DNA of 64,000 nt, taken from contig JAGMBO010000032.1 of NCBI GenBank assembly GCA_023129715.1, positions 22,057 through 86,056 on the forward strand, read 5' to 3'. Each line of letters starts with the position of its first letter. Within the stretch, counting starts at the first letter, position 1. This document shows positions 5,397 through 40,861 of this stretch, piece after piece. Origin of the DNA: Candidatus Eiseniibacteriota bacterium (lineage in GTDB: Bacteria > Eisenbacteria > RBG-16-71-46 > CAIMUX01 > WJJG01). Made by a program: the position numbers and the translations under genes. The notes beneath the pieces were generated by a model. That model was given only the letters and a program-made list of their open reading frames with translations. It was not told the origin of the DNA and searched no databases.

Positions 5397-6310
5397 GAGG
5401 AGTCCACGATGCCCAATAGTCACTCTCCGCATCCGCCGGAACTACGCCGGCGGTTGGTTGAGCTGGTTCGCTCCGGCCGAACTCCGGAGGAACTGGTCAG
5501 GAAGTTCGAGCCCTCTGGCCAGGCCATCCGCAGTTGAGTCCGGCAGGCCGAGCTCGATGAGGGTCGCCGGGAGGACGGCCTGACGACCCCGGAGCGCGGG
5601 GAGATCCGCAAGCTCCGTCGGGAGAACAAGGTTCTCCGTGAGGAGCGGGAGATCTAGGAAAGGCCGCGGCCTGGTTCGCCAAGCAGACCGGCTCGACTCC
5701 GTCAGAATCTTCGCGTTCATGAAAGCGCACCAGGCCATGTTCCGAATCGCCACCATGTGCCGCGTGTTGGGTGTTTCCTCCAGCGGGTATTACACGTGGC
5801 TCACCCGTTCTCCATCGATGCGGGCTCGTAGGGATGAGCACCTGCTTCGACTCATCCGGGAGATCCATTCTCCGTCGGATGGGACCTATGGCGCCGCGGA
5901 TCCACGCCGAGTTGACCGCCTAGAAGATCCATGTGGGTCCCAAGCGGGTCGCTCGTCTGATGGGTGCGGCCGGCTTGGTCGGCGTCAGTCGCCGGAAGTT
6001 CGTCACGACGACCGTGCGAGACCGCGAAGCCAAGGCGGCCCCCGATCTCGTCGAGCGGGATTTCACTCGAAGGGCCCGGACGAGCTCTGGGTGGCGGACA
6101 GAAGTGGTCCCGACATCACCTATGTCCCGACCTGGGAGGGCTTCCTCTACCTCTCCGTAGTCCGGGACGTCTGGACCCGACGGATCATCGGATGGACGAT
6201 GGCCTCCCACCTCCGGACCGAGCTCGTTCTCGAGGCTCTCGACATGGCTCTCAGACAGCGGTGTCCCATCGATGTGATCCATCACTCGGATCATGGCTGC
6301 CAGTGCACGG
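5397..6310 (+). pseudogene. Degraded IS3-family transposase (OrfA HTH plus OrfB DDE integrase fragment, multiple stops and frameshifts, 3' part lost).
   Basis: Frame-hopping translation gives PNSHSPHPPELRRRLVELVRSGRTPEELVRKFEPSGQAIRS*, VRQAELDEG...LRRENKVLREEREI*, ...FAFMKAHQAMFRIATMCRVLGVSSSGYYTWL..., ...VGPKRVARLMGAAGLVGVSRRKF... and ...WVADITYVPTWEGFLYLSVVRDVWTRRIIGWTMASHLRTELVLEALDMALRQRCPIDVIHHSDHGCQ, then diverges. At least 3 stops or frameshifts and no terminal DDE glutamate region. Confidence 0.75.
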
Positions 6311-6574
6311 CGTCGTCGCGATCATCGACCTACCCGTTGCGCGGTTCTCCGGACAGGGTGGAATCGCCAGGAGAGTGGATCCCGGGGGGATGCGATGCAT
6401 CGAACCCGACCGAGATCGTCGATCCTGCACGATCCCGTGAGGACGTTTTCCCGCGACCTCCCGTCTCGGAGCGAGTATCATGTCCCTGTCCCGAAACTCA
6501 GGGGCTCTTCAAGAACGAAAGCCCCAGACCCTCCACGGAAGCCGGGCGACTCCACTAGCGAATGGGAGGTAAAG

Positions 6575-9148: not shown

Positions 9149-9395
9149 TCGGCTGGCCGTCTCGGGCATGACGCTGAGGCCAATCGACGCAGGCTCCGAC
9201 TGATAGGCTACCAATAGATTCCGGTGAGCAGATCCCTGCTTCTCCGGCTGTTGGGGGCGGATTCGGCTGCCGGCAGCCTGGGCAGGATGGGGGGGGCACG
9301 CTTGCAACCCCGTGGCTGATGGGGGATTGGGGACGTTTTTCGAGCCTTCAGGCGTGCAGCGGGCCCTCTCATGCCCCCAAGATGTCCATAAATGA

Positions 9396-9401
9396 TATAA
9401 T
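9396..9401 (+). promoter_or_regulatory. Extended -10 element (TGaTATAAT) in the only AT-rich patch of the 320-nt intergenic, about 70 nt upstream of the C25 peptidase start.
   Basis: Sequence aatgatataattagg at 9391-9405. No clean -35 hexamer. Confidence 0.3.
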
Positions 9402-9471
9402 TAGGATGGTTGTGGCCGTCCGGAGGGGCGTCCGGTCGGCGCAGGGAGAAACACACCCAAGGGGGAATGTC

Positions 9472-11817
9472 ATGCAGCATACGCGCCTACTGCCGGTTGC
9501 GGTCATCGCAGCCCTCTTGCTCGCGTTCGCACTGCCGGCCTCGGGGACCGCGGCCGAGGGAGCGAACGAGGGGCTCTTGGAATACACGTTGGAGTTCTCC
9601 GAGCATGAGCTCACCTTCGAGAACGCCAAGGGCTTCGATCTGGTCTCCATGGACGAGACCACGTTTCTGAGCACGCCCGGCCATCCGATGCTGCCGGTGC
9701 GCCAGATCAAGATCGCTCTACCATCAGGCCTCGTGGCAACCGGTGTCCGTGTGCTCGCCGTGGAACGCGTCGAACTGCCCGGGCGGTTTCTGGTCTATCC
9801 TGCCCAGCCGGCACGCGCAGGCAGCGATCCCAGCGCGAAGCCCTTCGTCGATCCCATCGCAGACATCTACGCCTCCAGTGAGGTGTACCCTTCTGCAGTG
9901 GTGAGTTTCGTGCATCAGACGGACTTGGCCGGCCAGGGCATCGCCGTCCTCGACGTCACCCCGCTGCAGTACGTTCCGGTGACTGGCCGTCTCTCGATGA
10001 CGACCTCACTGACGATCGGCATCGAACATGAGACCGGCCACCTCTACGGGGACTATCTGCCCCAGAACGCCGCTCCCAAGCTGCGGGCGCGCTACGAAGA
10101 GCGCATCGCCCAGATGGTCGTCAATCCCGAGGATGTCATCGTCGCGAGCGCGCCGCTGATGCGTGGCACGCGCGGGGTCGACCCGGGACAATACGATCTC
10201 GTGATCATCACCGATCCCTATCTCGAATGGGCTTTCGAGCCGCTGGTCGAGTGGAAGACCAAGAAGGGTGTGCCGACGAAGGTCGTGACCACCAGTTGGA
10301 TCTACTACACGGGTGGCTATCCGGGGCCGGAGCAGACCGATCAGATTCGTCAGTTCGTCGAGGATGCGCATGCGACCTGGGGCGCAACCTTCTTCCTGCT
10401 CGGCGGGAACCAGTACAAGGTTCCGGTCAACTACTGGGATACCCCAACGGGGATGAATCCCCCGGTTCTGCCTGAAGACGTCTACTACGCCGACTACGAT
10501 GACGACTGGACTCTCGAGGTCAATGTGGGGCGCTGGCCGATTGGCTACAGCTCGGAGGTCACCGCCCACGTGAACAAGGTTTTGACATATGAAAAGACCC
10601 CGCCGCTGACTGATTACGCGGCCCGCCTGGGGCTCTTCGGCTTCGATCTCGATGCCTCGACGCATGGCGAGGAGTGCAAGGAGTACATCGATAGCCAGTA
10701 CATCCCCGGACACATGGATGTTGTCAAGATCTACGACAGCCATGACGGCAATCATGCCGACTCGGCGATCGTTGCGATCGACTCGGGCCTCCACCTGATC
10801 AACCACATCGATCACTGCAATACGGTCGGTTTGGGCATGGGCTCAGTGAACCATGGCTGGTCGATCACCGGCGCCGATGTCCTGAATTTCGTCAATGGGG
10901 ACCGGCAGTGCATCATCTACTCGACCGGATGCTACGTCGGCGCCTTCGACAACATTGATTGCATCTCGACCGACTTCGTCAACGAGTTCGACAACGGCGC
11001 GATCGCCTTCATCTGCAATACCCGGTATGGCTGGTTCAATCCTGGCCTGTGCACGACGCTCTCGAATCTCTGGGACCGCCGCTTCTGGGGCCAACTCTTC
11101 AACCAGGAGAAGTACACACTGGGTGAGTGTTTCTCGGACCACAAGGATGTGGTCTTTCTGACGAGCAACACACATCGGTACATCTACAAGGAGTTGACCC
11201 TCTTCGGTGATCCGGAGCTGCCACTCTGGACCGATGATCCGGCCGATCTGGTCGTCACCCATGACGCGACCATCGAGACCGGCGGGGCGACGCTTGATGT
11301 GCATGTCGAAGACAGCGGCGGCGGCGCGCTTGAAGAGGTGCGCGTGTGCCTCTGGAAGGGGGATGAGGTCTATCTCGTCGACTACACGGGGGTGACGGGG
11401 GATGTGACCTTCAATCCCAACGCGACGACCGAGGGCACGCTCTATGTGACCGCAACGGTTCACAACTACCTGCCCTACGAAGGGGAGACGGCAGTGCTCG
11501 ATCCGGCGGATGTGGCCGAGGATGCGGTGGTACCGACCGTGCTGCGGCTTCACCCCAACCGCCCCAGCCCGTTCCGGACGACAACGACGATCGCCTATGA
11601 CCTACCCGCGGAGTCGCGGGTCAGCCTGCGGATCTATGATCTGACGGGCCGAGTGATGCGCTCGCTGGTCGATGACCGGATGCAGGTGCAGGGCAGCCAC
11701 GAGGTCGTCTGGGACGGACGAGATGACGCCGGGCGACCGGTGGCATCGGGCGTCTACCTGTATCGGATGGAGAGCGACGAGCAGCAGCTGACGCGTCGGA
11801 TGTTGATGCTGCGCTGA
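9472..11817 (+). CDS. Gingipain-like cysteine peptidase (family C25) with signal peptide and T9SS-type CTD.
   Basis: Signal peptide MQHTRLLPVAVIAALLLAFALPASG. C25 catalytic His (INHIDHCNTVGLG) and Cys (IIYSTGCYVGAFD) regions. C-terminal RLHPNRPSPFRTTTTIAYDLPAESRVSLRIYDLTGRVMRSL...VWDGRDDAGRPVASGVYLYRM. RBS AAGGGGGA. Confidence 0.85.
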   Translation: MQHTRLLPVAVIAALLLAFALPASGTAAEGANEGLLEYTLEFSEHELTFENAKGFDLVSMDETTFLSTPGHPMLPVRQIKIALPSGLVATGVRVLAVERVELPGRFLVYPAQPARAGSDPSAKPFVDPIADIYASSEVYPSAVVSFVHQTDLAGQGIAVLDVTPLQYVPVTGRLSMTTSLTIGIEHETGHLYGDYLPQNAAPKLRARYEERIAQMVVNPEDVIVASAPLMRGTRGVDPGQYDLVIITDPYLEWAFEPLVEWKTKKGVPTKVVTTSWIYYTGGYPGPEQTDQIRQFVEDAHATWGATFFLLGGNQYKVPVNYWDTPTGMNPPVLPEDVYYADYDDDWTLEVNVGRWPIGYSSEVTAHVNKVLTYEKTPPLTDYAARLGLFGFDLDASTHGEECKEYIDSQYIPGHMDVVKIYDSHDGNHADSAIVAIDSGLHLINHIDHCNTVGLGMGSVNHGWSITGADVLNFVNGDRQCIIYSTGCYVGAFDNIDCISTDFVNEFDNGAIAFICNTRYGWFNPGLCTTLSNLWDRRFWGQLFNQEKYTLGECFSDHKDVVFLTSNTHRYIYKELTLFGDPELPLWTDDPADLVVTHDATIETGGATLDVHVEDSGGGALEEVRVCLWKGDEVYLVDYTGVTGDVTFNPNATTEGTLYVTATVHNYLPYEGETAVLDPADVAEDAVVPTVLRLHPNRPSPFRTTTTIAYDLPAESRVSLRIYDLTGRVMRSLVDDRMQVQGSHEVVWDGRDDAGRPVASGVYLYRMESDEQQLTRRMLMLR

Positions 11818-11876
11818 TGCGCGGGGCGGGCGCGCTGCGGCCGGCGATGATGTGCCGGCGACGTGTGCCCCCAGCC

Positions 11877-13499
11877 CTAGAAAATGACCAGCGGCACCGA
11901 CTGCTGCCCGTCCGCGGATCTCAACCGGGCGAAGTAGCAGCCCCGGGACAGTGGGCGTCCCCATCGATCCCGGCCGTCCCACGGGATGTCGAGGGGCCCA
12001 GGAGAGGCCGACAGACGCCAGTGGCGTACACACCGGCCGTTGGCATCGATGATCTCAACAGCCAGCGGTCCCGATCCGGCGACGTGCAGTTCGAGGGTCA
12101 GCCGGTCCCGCGCGGGAGAGGGGACCGCGGAAATGCGCTGCACGGTGCGTGAGGGTGCCTGCGGGATCGCGCCGGGGCCGGTGCTATAGCGGGATAGATG
12201 CACCTCGTAGTTGTCTTTGTCGCCGGCGAATTCGGTCCAGGCGACCCAGGCGGCGACGGTGGCGCGGTCACCTCGTCCCGGCACGACAATCACATCGGCG
12301 CCGACAATCGAGGGGCGGTACCCGTTCTCGCCGTCGGGGAGACTGATGACGTAGTCCTCGCTCGCGCCGCTCCAGCCCGCGACCTCGAAGAACGAGAAGT
12401 GCTGCTCCTTGCTGCCCGCGGTGTCCTCCTCCTCATCCCAAACCGCGCAAGGGCCCAACGCACCACGCACGGTGACATCGGGATTGTGGGCACTGCGCCC
12501 GCCGCCTTCGTCGTGAGAGACGGGCGTATTGACCGACTCGCCGGTCCAGGTCACCCCGAGGTCAAAGGAACTCGTGGCGTAGATCTCGTAGTGATATGGG
12601 CTGCTCGTATCGAAAGAAGCCTTGTAGACGACGTGGATGCCTTCCTCATGGGAGTAGGGCGCTGCCGCGAGGGCAAGATCGCCGATCAGGGTAGGCGGCT
12701 GGCAGATCTCCCGGTCGGCGGTCGCGCTGCTCCAGGTGAGCCCATCATCACTAGAGATGCCGACGTGGACGGTTTTCTTTCCCGAGTCCCCCGTCTCGTG
12801 CCAGACGACAAAGAGATGATCCTCGCAGGCGGTGATCTGCGGATCGAGGGCGCTGGTGCCGTCGGGGAAGCTGATCACCTGGTCACCGGTCATGCCGCTC
12901 CAGGTAGCCCCGCCGTCGGCCGAGCGCGAGTAGTGGACCTCGGCAGTCTCTCCGGAGAGCTGATGCCAGACGACATGAAAAACCCCGTCGAGATCGCAGG
13001 CGATCGAGGGAATCCCGGCATCCACTGCCGTGGCGGGGTCACTCAAGATCTGATCGGCCGTCTCGCAAGACCAGGTAGTGCCCTGATCATGCGAGACGCC
13101 GAAGTGGATCTCACGCGTGCTGATCGCATCCTCGCTCCAGACGATGATGAGCGAACCGGTCACTGGATTCATGGCCGCCGCGCACTCATCGAGCATCGCC
13201 TGGCCGTCGGGGAAGCTGATCACGCGGTCGGTGAGGGAGGAACTCCAGGTCTCGCCCTCGTCGATGGAGCGACCGTAGTGGATCTCGGCATCCCAGACGA
13301 TATCCTCGGTCCAGAATGCATGCACGGCGGAACCGTCCTCGGCGGCGACAAGTTGTACGGCGCGTGCATACTTGTCGTCGTCACAGCTGATAACCTGGTC
13401 GGCATCCTGACCCGACCAGTCGGCGGCCCGGGCCTGAATGAGCGGGGCGGCCGGTAGCCAGGCGAGGAGGACCAAGCCGAGGGGCGAGAGCGTCTTCAT
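11877..13499 (-). CDS. Secreted BNR/Asp-box repeat protein (sialidase-like beta-propeller) with T9SS-type CTD.
   Basis: Signal peptide MKTLSPLGLVLLAWLPAAPLIQARA. Five or more SxDxGxTW repeats (DEGETWSS, DQGTTWSC, DGGATWSG, DDGLTWSS, DLGVTWTG). C-terminal ...AVEIIDANGRCVRHW...WDGRDRWGRPLSRGCYFARL. RBS GGAGGTG 5 nt upstream of ATG 13499. Confidence 0.8.
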   Translation of the reverse strand: MKTLSPLGLVLLAWLPAAPLIQARAADWSGQDADQVISCDDDKYARAVQLVAAEDGSAVHAFWTEDIVWDAEIHYGRSIDEGETWSSSLTDRVISFPDGQAMLDECAAAMNPVTGSLIIVWSEDAISTREIHFGVSHDQGTTWSCETADQILSDPATAVDAGIPSIACDLDGVFHVVWHQLSGETAEVHYSRSADGGATWSGMTGDQVISFPDGTSALDPQITACEDHLFVVWHETGDSGKKTVHVGISSDDGLTWSSATADREICQPPTLIGDLALAAAPYSHEEGIHVVYKASFDTSSPYHYEIYATSSFDLGVTWTGESVNTPVSHDEGGGRSAHNPDVTVRGALGPCAVWDEEEDTAGSKEQHFSFFEVAGWSGASEDYVISLPDGENGYRPSIVGADVIVVPGRGDRATVAAWVAWTEFAGDKDNYEVHLSRYSTGPGAIPQAPSRTVQRISAVPSPARDRLTLELHVAGSGPLAVEIIDANGRCVRHWRLSASPGPLDIPWDGRDRWGRPLSRGCYFARLRSADGQQSVPLVIF

Positions 13500-13613
13500 G
13501 GGATCACCTCCATGTTCGAGGTGGGCGGATTGCATAGCGCGGCTTGCGCAAGTGCGCCGTGAGGAGGATAGGTCTTTGTGCGCCCGCCTGTCAACTTGGG
13601 AGCGCGGCGTAGC

Positions 13614-14495
13614 TCAGGCCTTGATTTTCTCCAGCACTGCCGTGGGCTTGATCCGATGGCGGGTAAGGCCGACCTCATCGGCCGAGAAGCCCTGAGCGAG
13701 TCCGAGGAGCTGGAAGAAGTAGACCGGTGGAACCTCGAAGTGCTCCTTCGTCTTTCGGTTGAGCAGAAGCTGACCGGTGTCGAATGATGAGAAGCAGGTC
13801 GGGCAGATCATCCCCATGCAATCAGCTCCGCTCTTCCTTACCGAGCGCAACACGCTAGCAGTCATATCCAGGGGAAGGTCGGGGTCGATGCACGCCTTGC
13901 CGCAGCAGAGGAAACGCTCGTCATGAGTGACCGGTTCGGCCCCAATCGCCTCGATGAGCTGATGGAGGATCTGGGGATCATCGGGGTCGTCGACCTGCAT
14001 GATCGAGGAGGGCTTCAGCAAGTGACAGCCGTAGTGCAGCGCGACACGCACGCCCGTCAGGGGGCGGGTGACGCTCTCACGCACGCGATCGATGCCGACC
14101 TTCTCGCGCAACAGGACGACGATATGGCGGACGGCAATCGAACCCTGGTATTTCCGGCCGACGCGCGCGAGGCGCCGGTTGACACGCTCGCGCAGCTGCT
14201 CATCGTTGCGCAGAAGGTGATTGGCTTCGCTCAGGGTGCCGGTGCAGCCGCTGCAGACCGTGAAGATGTCGTGGCCCGCCTCCTCGGCGAGGGCCAGATT
14301 GCGGGCCGCGAGCGTGAGCCAGGCGATCTTGTCGGCGGCCTGGAAGTAGATCGGATCGGGACAGCAGGAAAACCCCTCCAGATCGATGATCTCGACGCCC
14401 AGGTTGGGAAGCGTTCGCCGGATGGCGACTTCCATCTGCGGGTACTTGATCGGGATCAGGCAACCGGGGAAGAAGATGGCCTTGATCGGCTTCAT
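13614..14495 (-). CDS. hdrB: Heterodisulfide reductase subunit B (two CCG cysteine-rich domains).
   Basis: IFFPGCLIP...CCPDP and HYGCHLLKPS...CCGKACIDP motifs typical of HdrB. Overlaps hdrC by 4 nt. Confidence 0.85.
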   Translation of the reverse strand: MKPIKAIFFPGCLIPIKYPQMEVAIRRTLPNLGVEIIDLEGFSCCPDPIYFQAADKIAWLTLAARNLALAEEAGHDIFTVCSGCTGTLSEANHLLRNDEQLRERVNRRLARVGRKYQGSIAVRHIVVLLREKVGIDRVRESVTRPLTGVRVALHYGCHLLKPSSIMQVDDPDDPQILHQLIEAIGAEPVTHDERFLCCGKACIDPDLPLDMTASVLRSVRKSGADCMGMICPTCFSSFDTGQLLLNRKTKEHFEVPPVYFFQLLGLAQGFSADEVGLTRHRIKPTAVLEKIKA

Positions 14496-15040
14496 GATTC
14501 ACTCTCCGCGGTCGAAGAGGGCGGACTGTCTCCCGGGGGCGGATCCTCCGGGGCGAGCACAGCCCGCAATTCCCCCATGTCGATCGCCGGCAGGGGAGGC
14601 AGTCCCATGCTCTCCCGCTTGCGCTTCAGGCTGGCGATCACCGGCGCGCTGCGGCCGGTCTTGAGGATCGTCTCGTAGATGGTTTGGGCCTCCTCGGGAT
14701 GCGTGCCCTCCTCGCGGGCGAGGTTCTTCAGCGCAATAATCACCTCGACGGGCCGGACGTCCTGCGGACAGCGCTCGTAGCAGTTGTAGCAATTGGAGCA
14801 TTTCCAGATCACCGATCCGGGAGCGAGGAGGGTACCCAAGTCTCCGAGCAGGGCGGTCAACATGATCTCCCGCGGATTGAAGCTGGGGAAGAAGCGTGTC
14901 GTGGGACAGTCCCCGACACATGCCCCGCATTGGTAGCAGTAGTTGACATGATTCCCGCCCAGCACGGCGAGCAGCCGCCGCCGCTGGGCGAAATCGATAC
15001 GGATGCGCTTGTGGGGGGATGCGGCTTGTTCTGCTTCCAT
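14492..15040 (-). CDS. hdrC: Heterodisulfide reductase subunit C (2x[4Fe-4S] ferredoxin-like).
   Basis: CYQCGACVGDCP and CSNCYNCYERCP cluster motifs. ATG 15040 preceded by GAGGTG. The track ORF's upstream extension is a read-through. Confidence 0.8.
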   Translation of the reverse strand: MEAEQAASPHKRIRIDFAQRRRLLAVLGGNHVNYCYQCGACVGDCPTTRFFPSFNPREIMLTALLGDLGTLLAPGSVIWKCSNCYNCYERCPQDVRPVEVIIALKNLAREEGTHPEEAQTIYETILKTGRSAPVIASLKRKRESMGLPPLPAIDMGELRAVLAPEDPPPGDSPPSSTAESES

Positions 15041-15086
15041 GGACACCTCGTCCGCCTGGTCTCGATCGGCCGGGCCGTTCGCGCGT

Positions 15087-15230
15087 CTAGCCCTTGGCCT
15101 CTTTGGTGGGCCGGATGCTGTTGCTGCGGCAGCGGGGACAGACCCGCTCGACCGGCTCGCCATCCTTCCTGTGGACCGCGGTGAATTCCAGCCCGCAACG
15201 CAGGCACCGAAACCGCCGTTCTTCCTCCAT
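15087..15230 (-). CDS. Small FmdB-family-like zinc-ribbon protein (47 aa) embedded between hdrA and hdrC.
   Basis: MEEERRFRCLRCGLEFTAVHRKDGEPVERVCPRCRSNSIRPTKEAKG. GGGAGG RBS upstream. Not in the ORF track. Confidence 0.5.
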   Translation of the reverse strand: MEEERRFRCLRCGLEFTAVHRKDGEPVERVCPRCRSNSIRPTKEAKG

Positions 15231-15260
15231 TGTTGCTCTCCCTCCCGGGTAGGGTGCCGG

Positions 15261-17783
15261 CTAGGACTTCGCCGGGCCCGCGACAGATGCCGCCGCCCCC
15301 GCGGACGATTCCGCCCGAGCGTCCGCGGCCGCCTCGCGCTTCTTGCGGGCCGCCGCACGCATCTTCTCTTTCCGCCCTTCCCGCCGCTTGCGCTCCTCGG
15401 CGAGCACCTTGCGGGTATGGGCGATCTCCTCCGCCGTCACCTGAGCTCGCGGTTCATCGAGAACGCGCATCACCTCGGCGAATTTCTGCCCCTCGGCCGC
15501 GCTGATCCACTCGAGGTGGAGGCGCTCGGGGCGGATGCCGAGTTTCTCGAGGCGGTCCCAGGCGCGTTCGACGCGCGTGACCGTCTGCCGGTTGGCATTG
15601 ATGTAGTGGCAATCGGCGAAATGGCAGCCGGAGACGAGCACCAGGGGCGCGCCCTTCTCGAAGGCATAGAGAATCAGGTCCTCCGACACCCGCGCGCTGC
15701 ACATCGTGCGCACCAGGCGCCCATGCACCGGGAACTGCAGACGCGCGGTGCCCGCGGTGTCCCCGCCCGCGTAAGAGCACCAATTGCAGGCGAAGGTCAG
15801 GAGCTTGTCCTCGGGGTGTTCGTCGAGGATCGCATCGATTTGCGCCTTGAGCTGCTCATCGGTCGAGTGGCGCATGGTGAGCGCATCCACCGGGCATTCG
15901 GCGGCGCAGCAGCCGCATCCCGAGCAGGCCGCCTCGATGATCTCGGGCACGCCTCCCCGCTGCCAGTGAATCGCATGGAAGGGACAAACGGCAGCACACC
16001 GCCCGCAGCGGATGCAGTCGGCCTCCTCGAGCAGCGGGGTGCCCGCGTCAATGCGGATCCGGCCCGCACTGAGCAGGACCTGGACGTGAGAGGCTGCGGC
16101 GCCCGCCTGGGTTACACTGTCCTTGACGTCCTTCGGAGACTCGCAGCATCCCGCCAGGAAGATGCCCCGGGTGGGGGCGTCGACGGGCTTGAGTTTGGGA
16201 TGGGCCTCGAGGAAGAAGCCGTCACTGGTGCGGCTGAGGGTCAGCAGGCGTTGGACGGTGTTGGAGTCGAGTCGCGGTCTGACGCCCACCGAGAGCACTA
16301 CCATGTCGAGTTCGTGCTGCTCCAGCTCTCCGGCCAGCGTGTTCTCCACGCGCACCCGCAGGTTCTTCGTCTGTGGGTCTTCCTCGATCTCGCCCGGGAT
16401 CCCGCGGATGTAGCGCACGCCGGAGCTGCGGCTGCGCAGGTACAGATCCTCAAATCCCTTGCCGAACGCGCGGATGTCCATGTAGAAGACCTTCGCGTCG
16501 GTATCGGGATAGTGATCCGCGAGCAGCAGCGTGTCCTTGACCGTATTCATGCAGCAGATGTTCGAGCAGTAAGGCGAGCCATAGCGCGAGGAGCGGGAGC
16601 CGACACACTGGATGAAGCCGATGCGCCGCGGTCGCTCGCCGTCGGAGGGGCGGACGAAATGCCCGGCACTGGGGCCGCCGGCGCAGATCAGCCGTTCGAA
16701 CTCCATGCTGGTGATGACGTTGTCGTAGCGGCTGTATCCATACTCGGTGATCTCGGTCGGGTCGTAGGCCTCCATGCCGGTGGCGACGATCATCGCCCCG
16801 ACATCGACCTCGAGGATCTCATCGCGCATGTCGAAATCGATGCACTTCTGTTCACAGACCTCGAGGCACTTGCCGCAGGCAATCGGGTTGTTGCCCAGGC
16901 AGTCCTCGGGATTGATCAGGTAGGCCGAGGGGACCGCTTGAGGAAAGGGAATGTAGATCGCCTTGCGCGAGGCGAGTCCCATTTGGTACTCGTCGGGAAT
17001 GATGACCGGGCAGACCTTGGTGCACTCCGCGCAGCTATTGCACAGATCCTGCTGCACATAGCGCGCCCTGCGGCGTACCTTGACATGGAAGTTGCCCACC
17101 GCGCCCGAGACGTCGATCACTTCGCTCGAGACCAGAACCTTGATCCGGGGATGCCGACCGGCATCCATCATCTTGGGTCCCAGGATTCATATCGAGCAGT
17201 CCATGGTCGGGTAGGTCTTGTCGAGCTGGGCCATCAGCCCCCCGATCGACGGCTCCTTCTCGACCAGATAGACTTGCATGCCGCCGTCGGCGATGTCGAG
17301 CGCGGCCTGGATGCCGGCGATACCGCCCCCGATGACGAGCGCCGCCTGGGTGACATCGACCTCCGGCTCGATCTGAGGCTGAAGCTCATGAGCCCGCGCG
17401 ACCGCGCTACGCACCAGGTCCTTGGCCTTCTGGGTCGCCCCGGCGGGGTCGCCCGCGTGAACCCACGAGCAGTGCTCACGGAGATTGGCCATCTCCATGA
17501 GATAGGGGTTGAGTCCCGCCTGGGCAACGCAGGCGCGGAAGGTGAGCTCGTGCATCCGGGGCGTGCACGAGGCGACCACCACGCGCTCGAGCTTGTGCTC
17601 GCCGATTGCCTTACGGATCTCGTTCTGCCCCGGGTCGGCGCAGGTGTACTTGTTGTGCACCACACAGACGACGCCGGGCAGGGACTGGGCATACTCGGTC
17701 ACCGCCGCGGTGTCGACCGTTCCGGCGATGTTGAGACCGCAGTCGCAGATAAAGACGCCGGTCCTGGGAAAGTTGTTCTCCAT
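15261..17783 (-). CDS. hdrA: HdrA-like flavoprotein with in-frame UGA (predicted selenocysteine at 17187-17189) and a C-terminal MvhD domain (HdrA-MvhD fusion). Ends in a Lys/Arg-rich tail.
   Basis: Two track ORFs (17187..17783 and 15261..17171) are one frame joined by TGA. ...[63 protein letters not shown] aligns with the archaeal HdrA motif LDKTFPT-DCSMC-ILxPK. The C-terminus carries the MvhD signature [16 protein letters not shown]...VRTMCSARV...[12 protein letters not shown]. Confidence 0.8.
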
Positions 17784-17830
17784 CAGCTCCTCTCCGTCTT
17801 GCGGAACCCTGGTTCTCGCAACTCCTCGAT

Positions 17831-19810
17831 TCAGACCTTGGTCCCCTGATCACCCACCGACTGTCCCGCTGCGGCCGCGACCCCCGCGGCGGTTGGCGGC
17901 AAGGCGTCGGCGAGCAGATTCCACAGATCGACGATCTCGAGATCGGCCGCGGGATCTTCGGTCAGGCCTTCCTGGGCGCACCGCAGGTGAATGAAGCACC
18001 CGGGACACGCCGTTACCAGGCGCCGGCCGCCGGTGGCGACTGCCTCGGCGAGACGATCGGCCTGGAAGCGCTTCGTGGCTGCATTGCAGTTGAGCCAAGC
18101 CGTATTGCCGCAGCAGACCGCGCGCTCGCGATGATGCTCCATCTCGACGAGTTCGACACCGGCGACTTCGGTCAGCAGTTGGCGCGGGCGGTCGTAGATG
18201 CCCGAATGGCGGCCCAGCCGGCAGGGATCTTGATAGGTGACCCGGCCGTCGGCGGAATCGGTAGCCATTTCGGCGAGCTCCTCGCGCAGCGCGCCCAAGA
18301 CCAAGCTCAGGTGGGTCACCTCGCAGGCGACGTTGTGGCGGTCGAGCGCATCGCGTAGGGCCACCAGGCATTCGGGGCAGAAGGTGATCACGCGCGTCGC
18401 CCCACTGGCGCGGACTTGGTCGACGACCAGCGCCTCGAGTTCGTCGGCCTCGCGGGCGTAACCGGCGAGGCGCAGGTGGTATCCGCAACAGCGCTCATTG
18501 GCGAGCAGAGCGGGCCTGATGCCCACGTGGTTGAGCAGTTGCACGGCCGAGGACATCGTGCGGGTGAGTCCCGCCCCGGTCTCGCCGCCGAAGTAGGCGG
18601 AGAAGTAGGGGCTGCAGCCCACATAGAGCAGATCGTCCGACTTGCCGCGCTGCCCATCCGCGAGCACCTCGACCTCGAGATCCTCGCTCAGCCAGCCGAG
18701 ACGTTGCTGGCGCAACCCCGGCCGCGCCGCCATGCGGCTGATCTGCTCGAAGACCCCGCCATGGGAGCAGGGCGTGACCTCGTACCCAACCTGCTGCGTC
18801 TCGCCGCCCCAGCCGCTCGCCGCTGTGGACCCGCTGGGCTGCCGGCCATCGCCTGGCTGGCCCTCCGGCGCGGCCGGGGCCGGGTCACCGTCAGTCGCAC
18901 CGGATCGGCGGGCGACCGCCTGCGCGCGGGCACTCACGATGAACTGGCCATAGTCGACGCGCACGGGACAGACCGCCTCGCAAGCACTGCAGGTCAAGCA
19001 GGTCCAGAGAGCCGGATCGTTGGCGGGGCCGGCGGCGCCTGCGGCGAAGGTCCGGGTGATCAGACGGCGCGGGGAGAAACGCTGATAGCGGGCCACCGGA
19101 CAGACGGCGGTACAGCGCCCGCACTCCAGGCAGGCGAAGACGCGCGTGGCTTCGAGGGGCGGGGTTCCCGAGGGCGCAGGTTCGTTCCGGGCATCGCCGC
19201 CGGCGTCGTTTCCCGGCGCCAGCGGGCTGCGGCCGACGCCGCGCACCGCCTCAATGAACTCGTTCATCGTCTCGGCGAAGCGAATCCCCTCGGCGGCCGA
19301 GATCCACTCGAGGCGCAGGCGTTCCGGCTCCAGTCCGAGCAGAGCGGCAAGGGCGGAGGTCTTCTCGTACTGCTCCATGGCCCGGTAGTTGCCGAACATG
19401 TAGTGGCAATCGCCCGGATGACAGCCCGAGACCATCACACCGTCGGCCCCCTGCGCGAAGGCCCGCAAGACATGGCTTGGATGCACGCGCCCCGAGCACA
19501 TCACACGCAGCAGGCGGAAGTTGGGCTCATGCTGCAGTCGCGAGACGCCGGCCGTATCGGCACCGGCGTACGAACACCAGTTGCAGGCGAAGACGAGCAC
19601 CCGGGGATCGAAGCGCTCGCCGCCCGGCTCTTCCCCGGCGCGGGCGGCTGGACGGGATTCACCCGACTTCGCCGCCCGGCTGCGCGTGACGCCCTTGGAC
19701 GCTGCGGCCGGCGCGCGCTTTTTCGTCGTGCCACGGGGCGCGGCCGCGCCCTCCTTCGCACCTGGTGTCTTCCCACTTCCTTGCGCACGTTTCTCGGTCA
19801 TACCACCCAT
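17831..19810 (-). CDS. MvhD-HdrC-HdrB fusion (HdrD-like iron-sulfur/CCG protein with N-terminal MvhD domain and basic low-complexity N-tail).
   Basis: [18 protein letters not shown]...VMCSGRV...[11 protein letters not shown] (MvhD). [12 protein letters not shown] and [12 protein letters not shown] (2x4Fe4S). [14 protein letters not shown] and [12 protein letters not shown] (CCG domains). Start at 19810 or 19801 is uncertain. Confidence 0.75.
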
Positions 19811-19823
19811 CCTGCCGGCAGCC

Positions 19824-22800
19824 CTAATGGTCCGCCCGCTCGTGAACCTCCACGGCGAAGAGATCATCGATCATCGCGGTGATCTGATCGTCGGTGAAGT
19901 GTTGTGCGGTGATCGCGCCGGTCGGACACCAAACGGCGCAGGTGCCGCATCCCTTGCAGAGCGCCGCGTTGATGCTCGCCACCAGCGAGCCGGCAGGGTC
20001 GGTCACCAGACCCGGCGCCTGGAATTCGCAGATCGACACGCAGAGACCACATCCCCGGCAGCGGTCGGGATCGACCCGGCAGGCGGTCGGCTCGAGGAAT
20101 AGCCGGCCGGCGCCGAGCAGGGCGGCGACCCGCGCGGCTGCGGCGGAAGCCTGAATCAGCGAGTCGCGGAGATCCTTGGCCCCCTGGGCGGTGCCGCAGA
20201 GCACCACACCGTCGACGCACGTCTCGACCGGGGCCAGTTCCGGGTGGCGTTCGAGGAAGAAGCCGTCGGTGCCGCGCGGGGTCTTCAGCATCTGCTGGAC
20301 GCGACCCGCCTCTTGCGCGCGGGGCACGAGACCCACGGCCAGGACAACGAGATCCACCTCTGCGATGACCTCGCCGCGCAGCAGCGTATCCTCGGCGACG
20401 ACCTCGTGCGCCCGGCCATCGCGGCCCTGAACCACAGGGGGAGCACTGGCGTCGTAGCGGATGAAGAGCGTACCCATCTCGCGGGCCTGGCGATAGCTCT
20501 CCTCGGCGCCACAGCCGACCATGCGCATGTCGCGATAGAAGATAGTCGAGTCGATGTCATGCCCGTGGAGCTGCTGTGCCTGCTTGATCGTGGTCGGGCA
20601 GCAGATGCGGGAACACCCGGGGCAACCCGTCGCCGCGGGGCGCTCCGCGGATTCGGCCCCGTCGGTGCGCGCGGCTGCGGAGTCGGCAGGATCCCGTCGT
20701 GAGCCGACACACTGGATGAAGGCGACGCGCTCGACCCCCGCGAGGCCCTCGGTGCCCTGGGCCAGCCGGGCCTCCAGCTCCACCGAGGTGATCACGTTGC
20801 GATAGGTTCGATACCCGAACTCACCCTCCGCGGGCACATAGGGGTCGGCGCCGATGGCGACGACGATCGCGCCCGCTTCGATGTCCTCCTCATCGGGGCC
20901 TGGTTCGACGGGGGTGCGGGGGGCGGGATGCTCCCCGGCGGACTCCCGGGTAGCATCCCGGGATTCCGGCTTCCCGGAGATGGTTTCCCCGGAATCCTGC
21001 GCCGGTCCCAGCCGAACCCGGAAGTTGCCGACGAAGCCGGTCACCTGTCGGATGTCGGTGGACAGCCGCAGATCGACGCCGCTCTCCGCGACACGTGCCA
21101 GCATGCTTCCAACGGCCTCCTGCGCGTCCCGTCCGTCGGGATAGAGTGAGTGAAGATCGCGCAGCAGTCCGCCCGCAGCGGGAGCGCTCTCGATCAGGGT
21201 CACCTCGAAACCGAGGGCCTTGAGATCACTGGCGGCCTTCATTCCCGGCAAGCCGGCGCCCATGACAACCACCCGGCGGCTCACACTGACCTCGATCGGC
21301 TCGAGCGGCTCGAGGCGGCGGGCGCGCGCGACGCCCATTCGCAGCAAGTCGAGCGCCTTGGCGGTCGCCTGGCCGGGGGCGGCGGCATGGACCCAGGAGC
21401 ACTGATCGCGAACGTTGACCATCTCGAGCAAGTAGGGGTTCAGCCCCGCCTCAAGGCAGTTCTGCCGGAAGATCGGCTCGTGGGTCCGCGGCGTGCAGGC
21501 GGCCACGACGACGCGGGTGAGCTTGTGCTCCTCGATCGCATCCTGGATCGCCTGCTGCGAGCTGCTCGAGCAGGCGAAGAGCTCCTCGCCGACATGGACG
21601 ACGCTCGGGAGGTCGCGGGCGGTGGCCAGGAGCGCCGACATGTCGAGAACTCCGGCGATATTGACTCCACAATGACAGAGAAAGACGCCGATGCGTGGCG
21701 CCCCATCCTCGACGGTATCGCCGCCTGCGATGCCGTGGTCGTCCCATTCGTTGGCGGCGTGTTCCTCGACAGCCGATTCACCCGCAGCCTCCGATGGGCA
21801 CGCGGTCCCCGCCGCGGCAGGGACAGGCGGCACGCCGCCGCCCAGGGAGATCGCCGCCTCGGTCGCCGCCGCCGACCCCTGAGTCACGCAGTCGGGGATC
21901 ACCTGCGGCCCGGTTGCGCTGCCACAGACGAAGACGCCGGCCCGATTGCTGGCCATCGGCCGCTCGCCCGGGCTGGTCTGGAAGAAGCCGTGGGGAGTAG
22001 TAGTGATGCCCAGACGTGCGGCGAGCTCGGCGGTGCCGTCGGTCGGCACACCGCCGCAGGAGAGAATGACCATGTCGGCAGTGAGCCGTAGCTGCTCGCC
22101 GGTCTCGGTGTTCTCGACGGCGACCTGCAGGTCATGCGAGGCGGGGTCTTCGAGGATCTTGGCGGGCCGGCCGCGCAGGAAGTGGATCCACTCGGTGTCC
22201 CGGGCGCGCCCGTAGAACTCCTCGAAGCCCTTGCCGAAGGCGCGCACGTCGGTGTAGAGAATCGTTACCGCCTCCAGGTCGGGTTCGTGCTGTTTGAGCA
22301 GCAACCCATCCTTGATCGCGTTCATGCAGCAGAAACGCGAGCAGTAGGCGCGCCCCGCCTCACCGCGCGATCCGACGCACTGTACGTAGATCAGGTTGCG
22401 GGGAGAGCCGCCGTCGGAAGGACGGCGCACATGGCCCAGGGTGGGGCCCGAGGCGTTGAGGAGGCGCTCGAGTTCCAGGCTGGTCAGGACGTTGGGATAG
22501 ACTCCGTAGCCGTAGTTGCGCAGCACGCGCGGATCGAATTCGTCGAAGCCGGTCGCGGCGATTACCGCGCCGACCTCGAGGATCCGATCCTCCGGTGTTG
22601 CATCGAGGTCGATGGCATCGCGCGTACAGGCCTTGACGCAGAGCTTGCACTGGCGGCAGAGCTCGAAATCGATCGCATAGGCGGCGGGGACCGATTGGGG
22701 GAAGGGGCGTCCGATCGCCTTGCGCGGCCCCATCCCGGCATCGAAGCGGCTGAGCCCCTCGGCGGGACAGACCTCGGCGCAGGCGCCACAGGCGGTGCAG

Positions 22801-23126
22801 CGCGCTTCATCGACCCCCGTCGGGTGCCGGCGGATGGTGGCGCGAAAGGCCCCCGCCTCACCCTCGAGAGTGAGGAGCTCGGAACAGCGCAAGATCTCGA
22901 TCCGGGGATGCCGACCGGCATCCATCATCTTGGGACCGAGGATTCAGATCGCGCAGTCCATCGTGGGAAAGGTCTTGTCGAGCTGGGCCATCCGCCCGCC
23001 CAACGACGGCGTGCGCTCTACCAGGAAGACCTGATGCTGCGCCGTGGCCAGATCCAGGGCGGCCTGGATCCCGGCAATGCCGCCGCCGATGACGAGAACC
23101 GCCCTGTCTCGGTCGCTGCCTGCCAT
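19824..23126 (-). CDS. hdrA: Tandem-domain HdrA-like flavoprotein (HdrA2-type). N-terminal FAD module has in-frame UGA (predicted Sec at 22944-22946). Second HdrA-like module lacks the Sec/Cys motif. C-terminal 2x[4Fe-4S] ferredoxin.
   Basis: The track splits it into 22944..23126 and 19824..22928. ...[37 protein letters not shown] second CxCGxNIA domain ([15 protein letters not shown]) and a second Rossmann module ([17 protein letters not shown]) follow. C-terminus [13 protein letters not shown]...[12 protein letters not shown]. Confidence 0.8.
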
Positions 23127-23143
23127 GATCCCCCTTCCTTGTT

Positions 23144-23722
23144 TCAGATGTCCGCGGCCTTGGCCGGCCCGCCCTTGGCGGCTACCGCCTCGGCGGCGTA
23201 TTGCAACCCCTGTTCGAGGGCTGAGAGGTTGAAGTCCTCGGTCCCCGCGGGCACCGAGGTGCGCACCGCTTCGCGCAGCGCCTCGACCTCAACGAGGCCG
23301 GTACAGCCGACGAGGAAGCCGAGCATGACGATATTGGCCGCCATGCGACGGCCCATCTTCTCCGCCGTGCGCGTCGCCGGTACGGAGGCGACGAAGCTCG
23401 CCTGGGCGGGCGGTGTTCCCGCGTCGACCAGATCCTGGTCGTAGAGCAGCACGCCTCCGTCAATGAGCTCCTCCGTCCAGCTGTCGTAGCCCTCCTGCGA
23501 CATCGCCACCAGGATTTCCTGACCGCGGACGTAGGGGTAGTGGATCGGTTCGTCGGCGACGACGACCTGCGCAGCGCAGGCGCTGCCGCGGGCCTCGGGA
23601 CCATAGGACTGCACCAGGGTGGCCGACTTATGGTCGTAGACGCTGGCCGCCTTCCCGAGAACGTAACCCGCCAGGACGATTCCCTGCCCGCCGAACCCGG
23701 TGATACGGATCTCTCTTCTCAT
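23144..23722 (-). CDS. korC: 2-oxoacid:ferredoxin oxidoreductase gamma subunit.
   Basis: [22 protein letters not shown]... matches the Por/Kor gamma family signature. 17-nt gap to hdrA2. Confidence 0.8.
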
Positions 23723-23742
23723 CGCGTTTGCTCCACTCGTCG

Positions 23743-24648
23743 CTAACGTCCCCGCCGCTGCGCCAGATTGGCGCCCATCCGGTCGAGGAAGGTCGGTTTC
23801 TCGATGTCGACGAACTTGCCGACGACGATCTTCTCCTGGAAGCCGATGTCGATCTCGGCGGTATTGGCGCCGTGGCGGACTTCGCAGTTGTCGTGATAGA
23901 ACTTCATCAAGTCGGTGCCGGTGCCCAGGCGATTCTTGCGCGCATAGAGCGTCGAACAGGGGGCGATGACCTCGATGAAGGAGAATCCTCGATGGCTGAG
24001 CGCCGCGACCATCGCCTGCTTCATGCGGCGCACGTGCAGGGCGGTCCAGCGCGCGACGTAGGTGGCGCCACAGGAGGCGACCAGGTGGGGGACATTGAAG
24101 GGGTACTCGCTGTTCCCGTAAGGCGAGGTCGTGGTGCGGGCGCCGTGCGGGGTCGTCGGGGCGAGTTGCCCGCCGGTCATGCCATAGATGAAGTTGTTGA
24201 CGCAGATGATCGTGATGTCGATATTGCGCCGCGCCGCATGGATCAGATGATTGCCGCCGATCGCCACCAGATCTCCGTCACCGCTGAAGACGACCACCTT
24301 CAGCTTCGGATTCGCCAGGTGCAGCCCCGTCGCAAAGGGGATCGCCCTGCCGTGGGTCGTGTGGAAGGAGTCGAGGTTGACATAGCCGGCGACCCGTCCC
24401 GTGCAACCGATGCCGGAGACCACGGCGAATCGCTCCTCGGGGATGCCGCTCTCCTCGATCGCCTCGACGAAGCTGCTGACGCAGGTGCCGATGCCGCAGG
24501 TCGGGCACCAGATGTGCGGCAGGCGATCGCTGCGCAGCAGGCGGTCCTTGGGATGCGCATGAGCCTCGCGGACATCCGGCGCCGGCGGGGCTGCGGTGTC
24601 CGATCCGCCGGCTCCTGCACCGGCCGCTGTTGCGGCTTTCTGGTTCAT
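23743..24648 (-). CDS. korB: 2-oxoacid:ferredoxin oxidoreductase beta subunit (TPP-binding).
   Basis: WCPTCGIG...GIGCTGR...VVFSGDGDLVAIGGNHLIHAARRNIDITIICVNNFIYGMTGGQ, a TPP-binding motif. Confidence 0.85.
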   Translation of the reverse strand: MNQKAATAAGAGAGGSDTAAPPAPDVREAHAHPKDRLLRSDRLPHIWCPTCGIGTCVSSFVEAIEESGIPEERFAVVSGIGCTGRVAGYVNLDSFHTTHGRAIPFATGLHLANPKLKVVVFSGDGDLVAIGGNHLIHAARRNIDITIICVNNFIYGMTGGQLAPTTPHGARTTTSPYGNSEYPFNVPHLVASCGATYVARWTALHVRRMKQAMVAALSHRGFSFIEVIAPCSTLYARKNRLGTGTDLMKFYHDNCEVRHGANTAEIDIGFQEKIVVGKFVDIEKPTFLDRMGANLAQRRGR

Positions 24649-25802
24649 GAGCTGGCCTCCTCGATTCTGGCGAGTATCGTCTCCGGATCGTGAACCGCGC
24701 CGCCGGCATGCGGCACGTGGATCGTCCTGGCGCGTCCTGCCGCGCAGCGTTCGACCTCGTAGACCATCTGACCCAGGTTGATTTCCGGGACGACGAAGCC
24801 CTTGATCCGTGTCGCAAGCTCACGGATCACGCGCTCGGGAAACGGCCAGGCGACAATCAGGCGCAGGAGACCGACCCGCCGGCCTTGCTGGCGTGCCATC
24901 TCGACGGCCAACTGCGCGACGCGCGAGGTGATCCCGTAGCAGACGACGACGACCTCGGCCTCCGCGATACCGTCGCTCTCGTAGCGAATGATCTGCTCCG
25001 CATTCTTGCGGATCTTCTCGATCAACCGGGGCACCATCCGCTGCTGCACCGGGGCGACGACTTCCGGGTAGCCCCGCTCATCATGAGTCAATCCGGTCAC
25101 GTGAATGCGGTAGCCCTGACCGGCGGCGACCATCAGCGGGACGAGGTTCTCTTCGGGTTGATAGGGGAGGTAGTCCGCGGGCGCGGCGTCGGTGATCCGC
25201 CGTTCGATGCGGGCGATCTGATCCTCCGGCGGAATGACGACCTTCTCGGTCATGTGGCCGACGACTTCATCGCTCATCACCAAGACCGGAAGGCGGTAGG
25301 TCTCCGAGAGATTGAAGGCGTCGATGGTGAGGTCGAAACACTCCTGGGGCGAGTTGGGACAGAGGGCGATGATCTCGTAGTCGCCGTGGGATCCCCAGCG
25401 GGCCTGCATCATGTCCTGCTGGCCGACAAGCGTCGGCAGGCCGGTTGAGGGTCCCCCGCGCTGGACATTGACCAGCACGCAGGGGGTCTCGGTCATCACC
25501 CCGAGGCCGAGATTCTCCATCATCAGGCTGAAACCCGGTCCCGAGGTCGAGGTCATCGACTTGCGCCCGGCCCACGAGGCGCCCAGGATGGCGCCCATCG
25601 AGGCGATCTCGTCCTCCATCTGGATGAAGATGCCTTCGACGTCTGGCATCCGCTCCGACATCCGCTCGGCGACCTCGGTGGCGGGGGTGATCGGATAGCC
25701 GGCGAAGAAGGTACAGCCGACCGCCAAGGCTCCCTCGGCCGCGGCCACGTCGCCGTTCATGAAATGCTCGCCGGTGAGGACGGCGCCCCGAGGCTCACTC
25801 AC
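24645..25802 (-). CDS. korA: 2-oxoacid:ferredoxin oxidoreductase alpha subunit.
   Basis: LTGEHFMNGDVAAAEGALAVGCTFFAGYPITPATEV... GTG 25802 preceded by AAGGAGG. 8-nt overlap with korD. The track ORF N-terminal extension is a read-through. Confidence 0.85.
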   Translation of the reverse strand: MSEPRGAVLTGEHFMNGDVAAAEGALAVGCTFFAGYPITPATEVAERMSERMPDVEGIFIQMEDEIASMGAILGASWAGRKSMTSTSGPGFSLMMENLGLGVMTETPCVLVNVQRGGPSTGLPTLVGQQDMMQARWGSHGDYEIIALCPNSPQECFDLTIDAFNLSETYRLPVLVMSDEVVGHMTEKVVIPPEDQIARIERRITDAAPADYLPYQPEENLVPLMVAAGQGYRIHVTGLTHDERGYPEVVAPVQQRMVPRLIEKIRKNAEQIIRYESDGIAEAEVVVVCYGITSRVAQLAVEMARQQGRRVGLLRLIVAWPFPERVIRELATRIKGFVVPEINLGQMVYEVERCAAGRARTIHVPHAGGAVHDPETILARIEEASS

Positions 25803-26259
25803 GGCTGGCCTCCTTCTGGCTGCGGGACGATGCTCGCTGCGCGCCTGCCGGTGGTCCGGCGGGCGGCTCCGCGGACGACTGTGCTGCCGACTGCTCGGGG
25901 GACTGCCCGGCCGACTGCTCGGGGGACTGCCCGGCCGGTTGCTCGGCGGATTGCCCGGCCGGTTGCTCGGCGGATTGCCCGGCCGGTTGCTCGGCGCCGG
26001 GGTCGGGCACATCCTCCGAGTAGATGGCGAACTCGGGGCAAATGATCTCGCAGAGGCTGCAATTGACACAGGCGTCTTCTTTGACCGGCTCGGGATAGTG
26101 GTAGCCCTTCTTGTTGTATCTCTCCGAGATGACCAGGACGTCCCGCGGGCAGTATTCGACGCAGAACCCGCAGCCCTTGCAGCGCTCGACAATGATGTAG
26201 ATGCGCCCCCGTGGCGGCATGAACTGCTGCCGGTCCAATGGCGTTCTCCAAAAGCGCAT
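25795..26259 (-). CDS. korD: 2-oxoacid:ferredoxin oxidoreductase delta subunit (2x[4Fe-4S] ferredoxin) with an unusual C-terminal octapeptide-repeat tail (AEQPAGQS x5).
   Basis: CKGCGFCVEYCP and CVNCSLCEIICP. C-terminal tandem 24-nt DNA repeats at about 25878-25999. RBS GGAAGGG. Confidence 0.75.
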   Translation of the reverse strand: MRFWRTPLDRQQFMPPRGRIYIIVERCKGCGFCVEYCPRDVLVISERYNKKGYHYPEPVKEDACVNCSLCEIICPEFAIYSEDVPDPGAEQPAGQSAEQPAGQSAEQPAGQSPEQSAGQSPEQSAAQSSAEPPAGPPAGAQRASSRSQKEASRE

Positions 26260-40741: not shown

Positions 40742-40861
40742 GCTGCTTTTCAGAGGGTCGCCTTGACCGCCGCGAGCTCGACACGATATAATTGCATGTG
40801 GACGGCGTCTCATGCGTGGTGCAGCCATTGCCCCATCATCCTTGGTCAAGGAGGCCTCCCC

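Follow-up and report, generated by a model that had tools for sequence, protein, structure and literature searches.

The por-hdr operon and its HdrA genes

The window, by which we mean the whole 64,000-nt stretch of DNA analyzed here, carries a ten-gene operon on its minus strand (13614-26259) in the order porD-porA-porB-porG, an hdrA fusion, an mvhD-hdrC-hdrB fusion, an hdrA-mvhD fusion, hdrC and hdrB, with both hdrA fusions predicted to encode selenocysteine (Sec). We refer to the hdrA fusion that follows the por genes as paralog 2 and to the hdrA-mvhD fusion as paralog 1. Upstream of paralog 2, the delta, alpha, beta and gamma subunits of a 2-oxoacid:ferredoxin oxidoreductase (23144-26259, minus strand) were identified from the Pfam models POR_N, PFOR_II, TPP_enzyme_C and POR, from NCBIfam and from the gene calls of locus L081. 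The MvhD-HdrC-HdrB fusion gene (17831-19867, minus strand; Pfam FlpD, Fer4 and CCG) lies between the two HdrA paralogs. Public annotation places a 47-residue zinc-ribbon (Zn_ribbon_8) open reading frame (15086-15229, minus strand) between paralog 1 and hdrC, and the operon ends (13614-15040, minus strand) with an HdrC-like gene (14492-15040) and an HdrB-like gene (13614-14495), both assigned from Pfam (Fer4_8, CCG) and the L081 gene calls. No hydrogenase gene was identified in this operon.

By synteny, the order of the operon is kept gene for gene in about 15-20 MAGs labeled as Acidobacteriota, Planctomycetota, Ignavibacteria, Gemmatimonadota, Deltaproteobacteria and others (loci L002, L003, L006, L007, L010, L012, L014-L019, L021, L022 and L080).

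Paralog 1 (15261-17783, minus strand) is an HdrA-MvhD fusion gene of 840 codons, counting codon 199 as Sec. Its frame, read from 17783 to 15261, contains a single internal TGA at 17189-17187. The translation matches residues 6-652 of the solved HdrA of Methanothermococcus thermolithotrophicus (5ODC chain A, hereafter 5ODC_A; E = 1e-231) and then runs on into an MvhD domain, as judged by a match to MvhD chain D and by Pfam FlpD. The alignment to 5ODC_A is ungapped around the TGA, which falls on Cys197, so that codon 199 (17187-17189) occupies the canonical Sec position of HdrA.

Paralog 2 (19824-23126, minus strand) starts with an ATG at 23126 behind a Shine-Dalgarno-like GGAAGGGGG. On translation, the frame from 23126 to 19824 shows one internal stop only, the TGA at 22946-22944, and with this TGA read through the gene comprises 1100 codons including Sec61. 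Codon 61 (22944-22946) also aligns with Cys197 of 5ODC_A, in agreement with the sequence-only reading, which had reported the same in-frame TGA in both paralogs. Pfam domains in the protein are FAD/Pyr_redox and Fer4. The match to 5ODC_A (E = 2.8e-211) falls into three stretches: residues 10-382 correspond to 5ODC_A 146-518, the FAD domain bearing the TGA; residues 477-623 correspond to 5ODC_A 4-150, the N-terminal cluster domain; and residues 909-1090 correspond to 5ODC_A 471-650, the C-terminal ferredoxin domain. This three-piece match identifies paralog 2 as a fused double HdrA. Both the HdrA and the HdrA2 models of NCBIfam match paralog 2, the protein scanned, below their curated cutoffs (HdrA2 with E = 1.9e-302), and no equivalog assignment follows from them. 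Homology to the HdrA family holds for both paralogs.

The first half of paralog 2 has the Cys197 equivalent (as Sec) and no N-terminal cluster domain; the second half has the cluster domain but lacks a cysteine at the corresponding site. One HdrA contributes Cys197 as a ligand to its partner's N-terminal [4Fe-4S] cluster, and fused or tandem HdrAs with such complementarity between Cys197 and the N-terminal domain are known from ANME HdrA3/4 and Moorella HdrA (Chadwick et al. 2022, PMC9012536). The arrangement in paralog 2 is complementary in the same way, which suggests a predicted intramolecular version of the HdrA dimer contact. Unlike in the ANME and Moorella fusions, the half bearing Cys197/Sec comes first, making paralog 2 a permuted double HdrA of reversed order.

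Outside the operon, a FlgD Ig-like domain forms the C terminus of five large predicted proteins, namely a beta-helix protein (71-5230), a C25 peptidase (9319-11817), a BNR protein (11877-13535), an S8 subtilase (40763-43333) and an fn3/CBM96 protein (43604-46549). This ending resembles a common C-terminal tag for sorting or secretion. An open reading frame with an rve integrase core domain (5638-6558) adjoins the gene for the large beta-helix protein and is possibly a transposase or insertion sequence.

The 36-nt run shared by the paralogs

The window contains exactly two copies of the 33-mer singled out in the sequence-only reading (22931-22899 and 17174-17142), with 0 copies expected by chance (100 shuffles). 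That reading had placed the 33 identical nucleotides right behind the TGA. Their exact identity stands, while their position does not: counting the U of UGA as +1, the 33-mer begins at nt +16, and the full identical run is 36 nt long, from nt +13 to +48 (22899-22934 in paralog 2 and 17142-17177 in paralog 1, both minus strand). The 9 nt separating it from the TGA contain two synonymous differences between the paralogs. These synonymous differences lie 1 and 4 nt upstream of the run, and amino-acid changes begin directly downstream of it. No longer identical stretch exists between the two genes, the next ones measuring 23, 14 and 13 nt, and the flanking coding sequence has diverged as the sequence-only reading described, with 57.7% nucleotide identity over aligned codons and 46-50% amino-acid identity, depending on the region aligned.

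The 12-residue peptide encoded by the run is also identical in both paralogs. The nucleotide identity is therefore partly that of the protein sequence, and the extra information lies only in 10 degenerate codons. All 10 of these match, compared to 57.6% of the identical degenerate residues elsewhere in the alignment, and the chance of all 12 codons of the run matching by codon usage alone is ~2e-4.

Within the run, a candidate SECIS hairpin (22906-22923, minus strand, in paralog 2) extends from nt +24 to +41, with stem arms GGAUGCC and GGCAUCC closing a GGUC loop. The same 18 nt, recognized by sequence identity and folding, lie at 17149-17166 (minus strand) in paralog 1. The predicted fold has a 7-bp stem and a 4-nt loop with an energy of -12.3 kcal/mol (26-nt core). 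For DNA of 65% G+C, this folding is not unusual in single sequences, with z-scores against shuffles of -1.0 to -1.6 (-1.6 for the 26-nt core). Because thermodynamics alone is unpersuasive at this composition, the case for a SECIS rests on comparison with related sequences. Rfam searches of the window (gathering threshold) and of 22800-23000 (E up to 10) returned a tRNA-Trp and two chance-level matches, and no SECIS family.

TGA and cysteine sites in related HdrA genes

For the comparison, the HdrA core was scanned against one genome per species, and the best 80 loci of ~600 or more pattern matches were taken. The site motif P-T/S-x-D-C-x-x-[X]-I/V/L-L/M/I yielded 103 sites in these 80 loci and the window together, at which the codon in the Sec position is TGA in 61, TGT in 21 and TGC in 21. 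The 59 TGA sites other than the window's own two come from several phyla. Of the 61 TGA sites, 53 are followed by a hairpin that keeps the register and 6 or more of the 7 pairs of the window hairpin; its loop is GGUC in 51 and GGUA in two. In the remaining 8 TGA sites, which together make up a single Anaerolineae clade, another hairpin takes this position. By comparison, the full 7 pairs and the GGUC loop are each absent from all 42 Cys sites in the best 80 loci, including those that encode an identical peptide. Mean folding energies between +16 and +50 are -12.1 kcal/mol at Sec sites and -5.4 kcal/mol at Cys sites.

Codon choice follows the same division. In the 53 main-type Sec sites, codons +8, +10 and +12 are GAT, GGT and CAT without exception (53/53 each), and codon +9 is GCC in all 40 that encode Ala. 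Other conserved degenerate residues between -20 and +40 have codon entropies of 0.5-2.4 bits in these sites, and in the Cys group the hairpin codons themselves have entropies of 1-2.5 bits. The contrast between synonymous identity inside and outside the hairpin that the sequence-only reading anticipated is seen both within the window and across the 53 orthologues. Likewise borne out, given the hairpin-free Cys homologues with the same peptide, is its proposal that the RNA hairpin is conserved beyond what the protein demands, even with part of the identity owed to identical protein.

Covariation is thin, as most stem positions are invariant and invariance alone says nothing on pairing; genuine compensatory changes exist but are few. 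At pair 29:36, 40 of the 53 main-type sequences have C:G, 9 have U:A and 4 have U:G, with an Ala to Val change coupled to a change from CGG to CGA. RNAalifold applied to all 61 TGA sites gave no structure because the 8 Anaerolineae sequences carry a register-shifted hairpin; on the 53 main-type sequences it gave a 6-bp core that is kept in 53/53.

The Anaerolineae hairpin has arms UGACGC and GCGUCA around a GGC loop and spans nt +24 to +38, at the same distance from the UGA and in a register shifted relative to the GGUC hairpin (L026, L028, L032, L034, L035, L037, L048 and L055; peptide ILAPKMVDAARHP). In this clade, the predicted structure is kept while the sequence is replaced. A separate case is locus L010 (15385-15444), where C:G has taken the place of G:C at the outermost pair 24:41, a change that replaces Pro by Arg in the protein (RHRN, not RHPN). 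Here, RNA structure appears to have shaped the protein sequence.

Five Dehalococcoidia genes (L042, L052, L068, L070 and L072) have TGT or TGC and branch inside the Sec-containing paralog-1 clade. Their peptide is still MMDVGRHP, but the codons used, GAC GTG GGC CGT CAC, make the hairpin impossible. This group looks like a putative switch from Sec to Cys followed by decay of the SECIS.

We note two further features near the UGA. The Ile codon preceding it (codon -1) is the rare ATA in 74% of the 53 Sec sites, compared to ATC in 61% of the Cys sites with Ile there; the window genes differ from each other, with ATA in paralog 1 (17190-17192) and ATC in paralog 2 (22947-22949). The ATA may reflect a context effect on UGA recoding. 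In addition, paralog-2-type genes that encode GPKAM (e.g., L004, L007, L012 and L015-L017) have a second small hairpin, GGCC-NNAA-GGCC, at +10 to +21 between the UGA and the SECIS hairpin. It is absent from the window genes, both of which encode GPKMM.

Searches for further sites returned little. No third site in the window emerged from a covariance model trained on the 61 sites, its two matches being training members that score by construction. A search of all loci scanned for a TGA with a GGU[C/A]-loop hairpin outside HdrA gave two matches, both of which look spurious. When the window was scanned for in-frame TGAs flanked on either side by an open frame, with GC3 typical of coding sequence and a hairpin resembling a SECIS, seven matches were obtained, five of which were rejected as antisense frames or stop/start overlaps of adjacent genes, and only the HdrA sites lie in real genes.

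The duplication that produced the two paralogs is old. Identity between the two window paralogs is 50%, compared to 70-73% between each of them and its orthologues in other phyla, and about 15-20 other genomes contain this pair of TGA genes in the operon, spaced ~5.2 kb apart. In a neighbor-joining tree of 102 sites, a paralog-2 clade (25 Sec, 0 Cys) stands apart from the paralog-1 clade. Among the best 80 loci and the window, TGA together with the hairpin is found in 25/25 members of the paralog-2 clade and in most of the paralog-1 clade. The sequence-only reading had named two patterns that would speak against it, TGC/TGT orthologues without hairpin conservation and a much longer tract of gene conversion. 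Neither emerged: the clades are as just described, and the identity is confined to 36 nt between diverged flanks.

We considered the hypothesis that a short, recent gene conversion between the paralogs, whether or not the hairpin is functional, produced the 36-nt identity. The length of the run relative to the other shared stretches is consistent with such an event, as is its extension a few codons beyond the hairpin on each side. Moreover, the two hairpins differ by at least one base in 13 of the 18 other genomes with both paralogs, so full identity is not the rule. These differences also imply that the paralog hairpins evolve separately. However, the tract is tightly bounded by synonymous differences on one side and amino-acid changes on the other, each paralog is closer to its orthologues in other phyla than to its partner, and the flanking identical codons (CCC, AAG, CCC, CGG and ATC) are mostly common ones. 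Most directly, the exact 18-nt hairpin recurs at 28 of the 61 TGA sites across many phyla and the exact 36-mer in an unrelated Anaerolineales MAG (L043), indicating that selection suffices to yield the sequence repeatedly and that gene conversion is not needed. We consider conversion improbable. The identity of the paralogs is instead the outcome of a double constraint, of peptide and RNA structure, on the same bases, and recent exchange is not required.

Somewhat less probable still is that the identity is a by-product of the identical peptide and a G+C-rich codon bias (GC3 of the window, 79%) with no RNA element involved. The shared peptide fits this explanation, as does the 23-nt identical run, which lies just upstream and has no hairpin. 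However, three fixed hairpin codons, GAT, GGT and CAT, end in U against the GC3 bias, with GGT accounting for just 13% of Gly codons in the window. The final U of GAU and that of CAU each pair with the A of the other codon, and GGU contributes its U to the loop. In addition, Cys homologues spell the same peptide with other codons, as the Dehalococcoidia genes do, and synonymous entropy reaches zero only at the hairpin codons and only in TGA genes.

Probable selenocysteine decoding and its implications

Taken with the comparison of the best 80 loci, these data favor a functional SECIS over two independent pseudogenizations, as the sequence-only reading had argued from the two genes. We consider it very probable, from sequence comparison, that both TGAs are selenocysteine codons of HdrA-family flavoproteins and that the shared 18-nt hairpin is a functional bacterial SECIS. 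By the established bacterial mechanism, the ribosome would reach the UGA while the hairpin ~20 nt downstream is still folded, the GGUC loop would be presented to the elongation factor SelB carrying Sec-tRNA(Sec), and SelB would deliver selenocysteine in place of termination by release factor 2. Homology predicts that the inserted Sec would replace Cys197 of HdrA, which, from the thioredoxin-reductase-like domain, would ligate the [4Fe-4S] cluster at the N terminus of the partner HdrA module. The genes would then encode an Hdr-type complex that bifurcates electrons and contains a selenium-ligated cluster.

The UGA might instead yield a standard residue such as Cys or Trp, through near-cognate decoding or reassignment of the codon, with the hairpin only slowing the ribosome. 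This explanation could draw on the search for Sec machinery, whose outcome also counts against the selenocysteine reading: selA, selB, selD and tRNA-Sec were found neither in the 64-kb window nor in the flanks of 43 loci (the TGA-bearing loci and L081), and ARAGORN detected no tRNA-Sec in the window or the 43 loci. Nevertheless, we regard it as very unlikely, as TGA is the normal stop of 12 of the 30 Pfam-supported genes in the window, the only two credible in-frame TGAs in the window both fall on a Cys that is a known Sec position, and the hairpin has a G-U loop motif of the SelB type. Least credible of all, to the point of being negligible, is that both genes are inactivated by nonsense mutations or genuinely split, as implied by public gene calls (DAOVPT010000022.1, GCA_030629055.1) that cut them at the TGA into products of 60 + 1034 and 198 + 636 residues, since the same codon is TGA at 59 other sites in many phyla, both frames are intact over 840 and 1100 codons with no frameshift and with full-length matches to a solved HdrA, and the 1034- and 636-residue calls begin at an internal Met within a conserved domain.

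Compared to known elements, the hairpin has the features of a bacterial SECIS. In the bacterial consensus model (Zhang and Gladyshev, restated in PMC13188914), the upper stem measures 4-16 bp and carries an apical loop of 3-9 nt, of whose first two nucleotides one or both are G, in most cases with another G or a U next. The loop lies 16-37 nt from the UGA, and the minimum free energy is at most -7.5 kcal/mol. The window hairpins have a 4-nt loop on a 7-bp stem, the loop sequence G-G-U-C, a spacing of 27 nt (+4 to +30) and an energy of -12.3 kcal/mol, a value whose shuffle z-score is just -1.6. They fall outside the narrow description of the E. coli fdhF type, as the stem has no interruption and starts 20 nt past the UGA. 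As in fdhF, the hairpin lies just downstream of the UGA and its apical loop offers the G and U that are the SelB contacts in fdhF. The E. coli fdhF loop is also GGUC. Unlike the window hairpins, the fdhF element has a bulged U (U17) in its 5′ arm, its stem starts 11 nt after the UGA, and its loop G-U is at +23/+24 rather than +32/+33. The predicted element thus fits the general bacterial SECIS model and is not a copy of the E. coli element.

HdrA is an established bacterial selenoprotein family, with members in Syntrophobacter fumaroxidans, Syntrophus aciditrophicus, Moorella thermoacetica and others (Zhang et al. 2006, PMC1794560). As in the window, UGA replaces a conserved Cys in those genes, genomes may hold several Sec-HdrA copies, hdrA-hdrA fusions occur, and the SECIS lies within the coding region just after the UGA (PMC1794560). 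In contrast, the deltaproteobacterial operons are arranged glpC-hdrA-frhD-frhG-frhA with hydrogenase subunits (PMC1794560), whereas the window genes follow a 2-oxoacid:ferredoxin oxidoreductase, and their host is an uncultured bacterium with an unclassified MAG as its nearest relative among those sampled. Archaeal HdrA has a single Sec at about position 200, which is canonical (Mariotti et al., PMC4989117). The archaeal selenoproteins (Methanococcales, Methanopyrus and Asgard archaea) share the Sec position, at ~residue 200, with the window genes, but the SECIS elements of archaea are located in untranslated regions and differ in shape, compared to the bacterial-type hairpin inside the reading frame here.

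The window HdrAs are thus ordinary examples of a selenoprotein family recognized since at least 2006, and they leave our knowledge of Sec decoding unchanged. The por-hdr operon context is the sole part for which we found no published description, in a literature search that was limited and far from exhaustive. Tentatively, and with more doubt than confidence, we suggest that the operon might encode an undescribed complex coupling 2-oxoacid oxidation to Hdr-type flavin-based electron bifurcation, in which a selenium-ligated [4Fe-4S] cluster would be obligatory.

For the family, these genes offer a clean natural experiment on overlapping constraints, in which the same peptide is encoded with or without a hairpin depending on an upstream UGA versus UGY alone, and the putative 18-nt SECIS is nearly sequence-invariant across several phyla. 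For the organism, the split of both HdrA genes at the TGA is a correctable annotation error; the two selenoprotein genes occupy 10597-13899 and 15940-18462 in the coordinates of locus L081. The same splitting likely affects orthologues in other MAGs. With gene calls split at the TGA, two full-length selenoproteins, and with them a dependence on selenium, may go unnoticed when the metabolism of these uncultured lineages is reconstructed.
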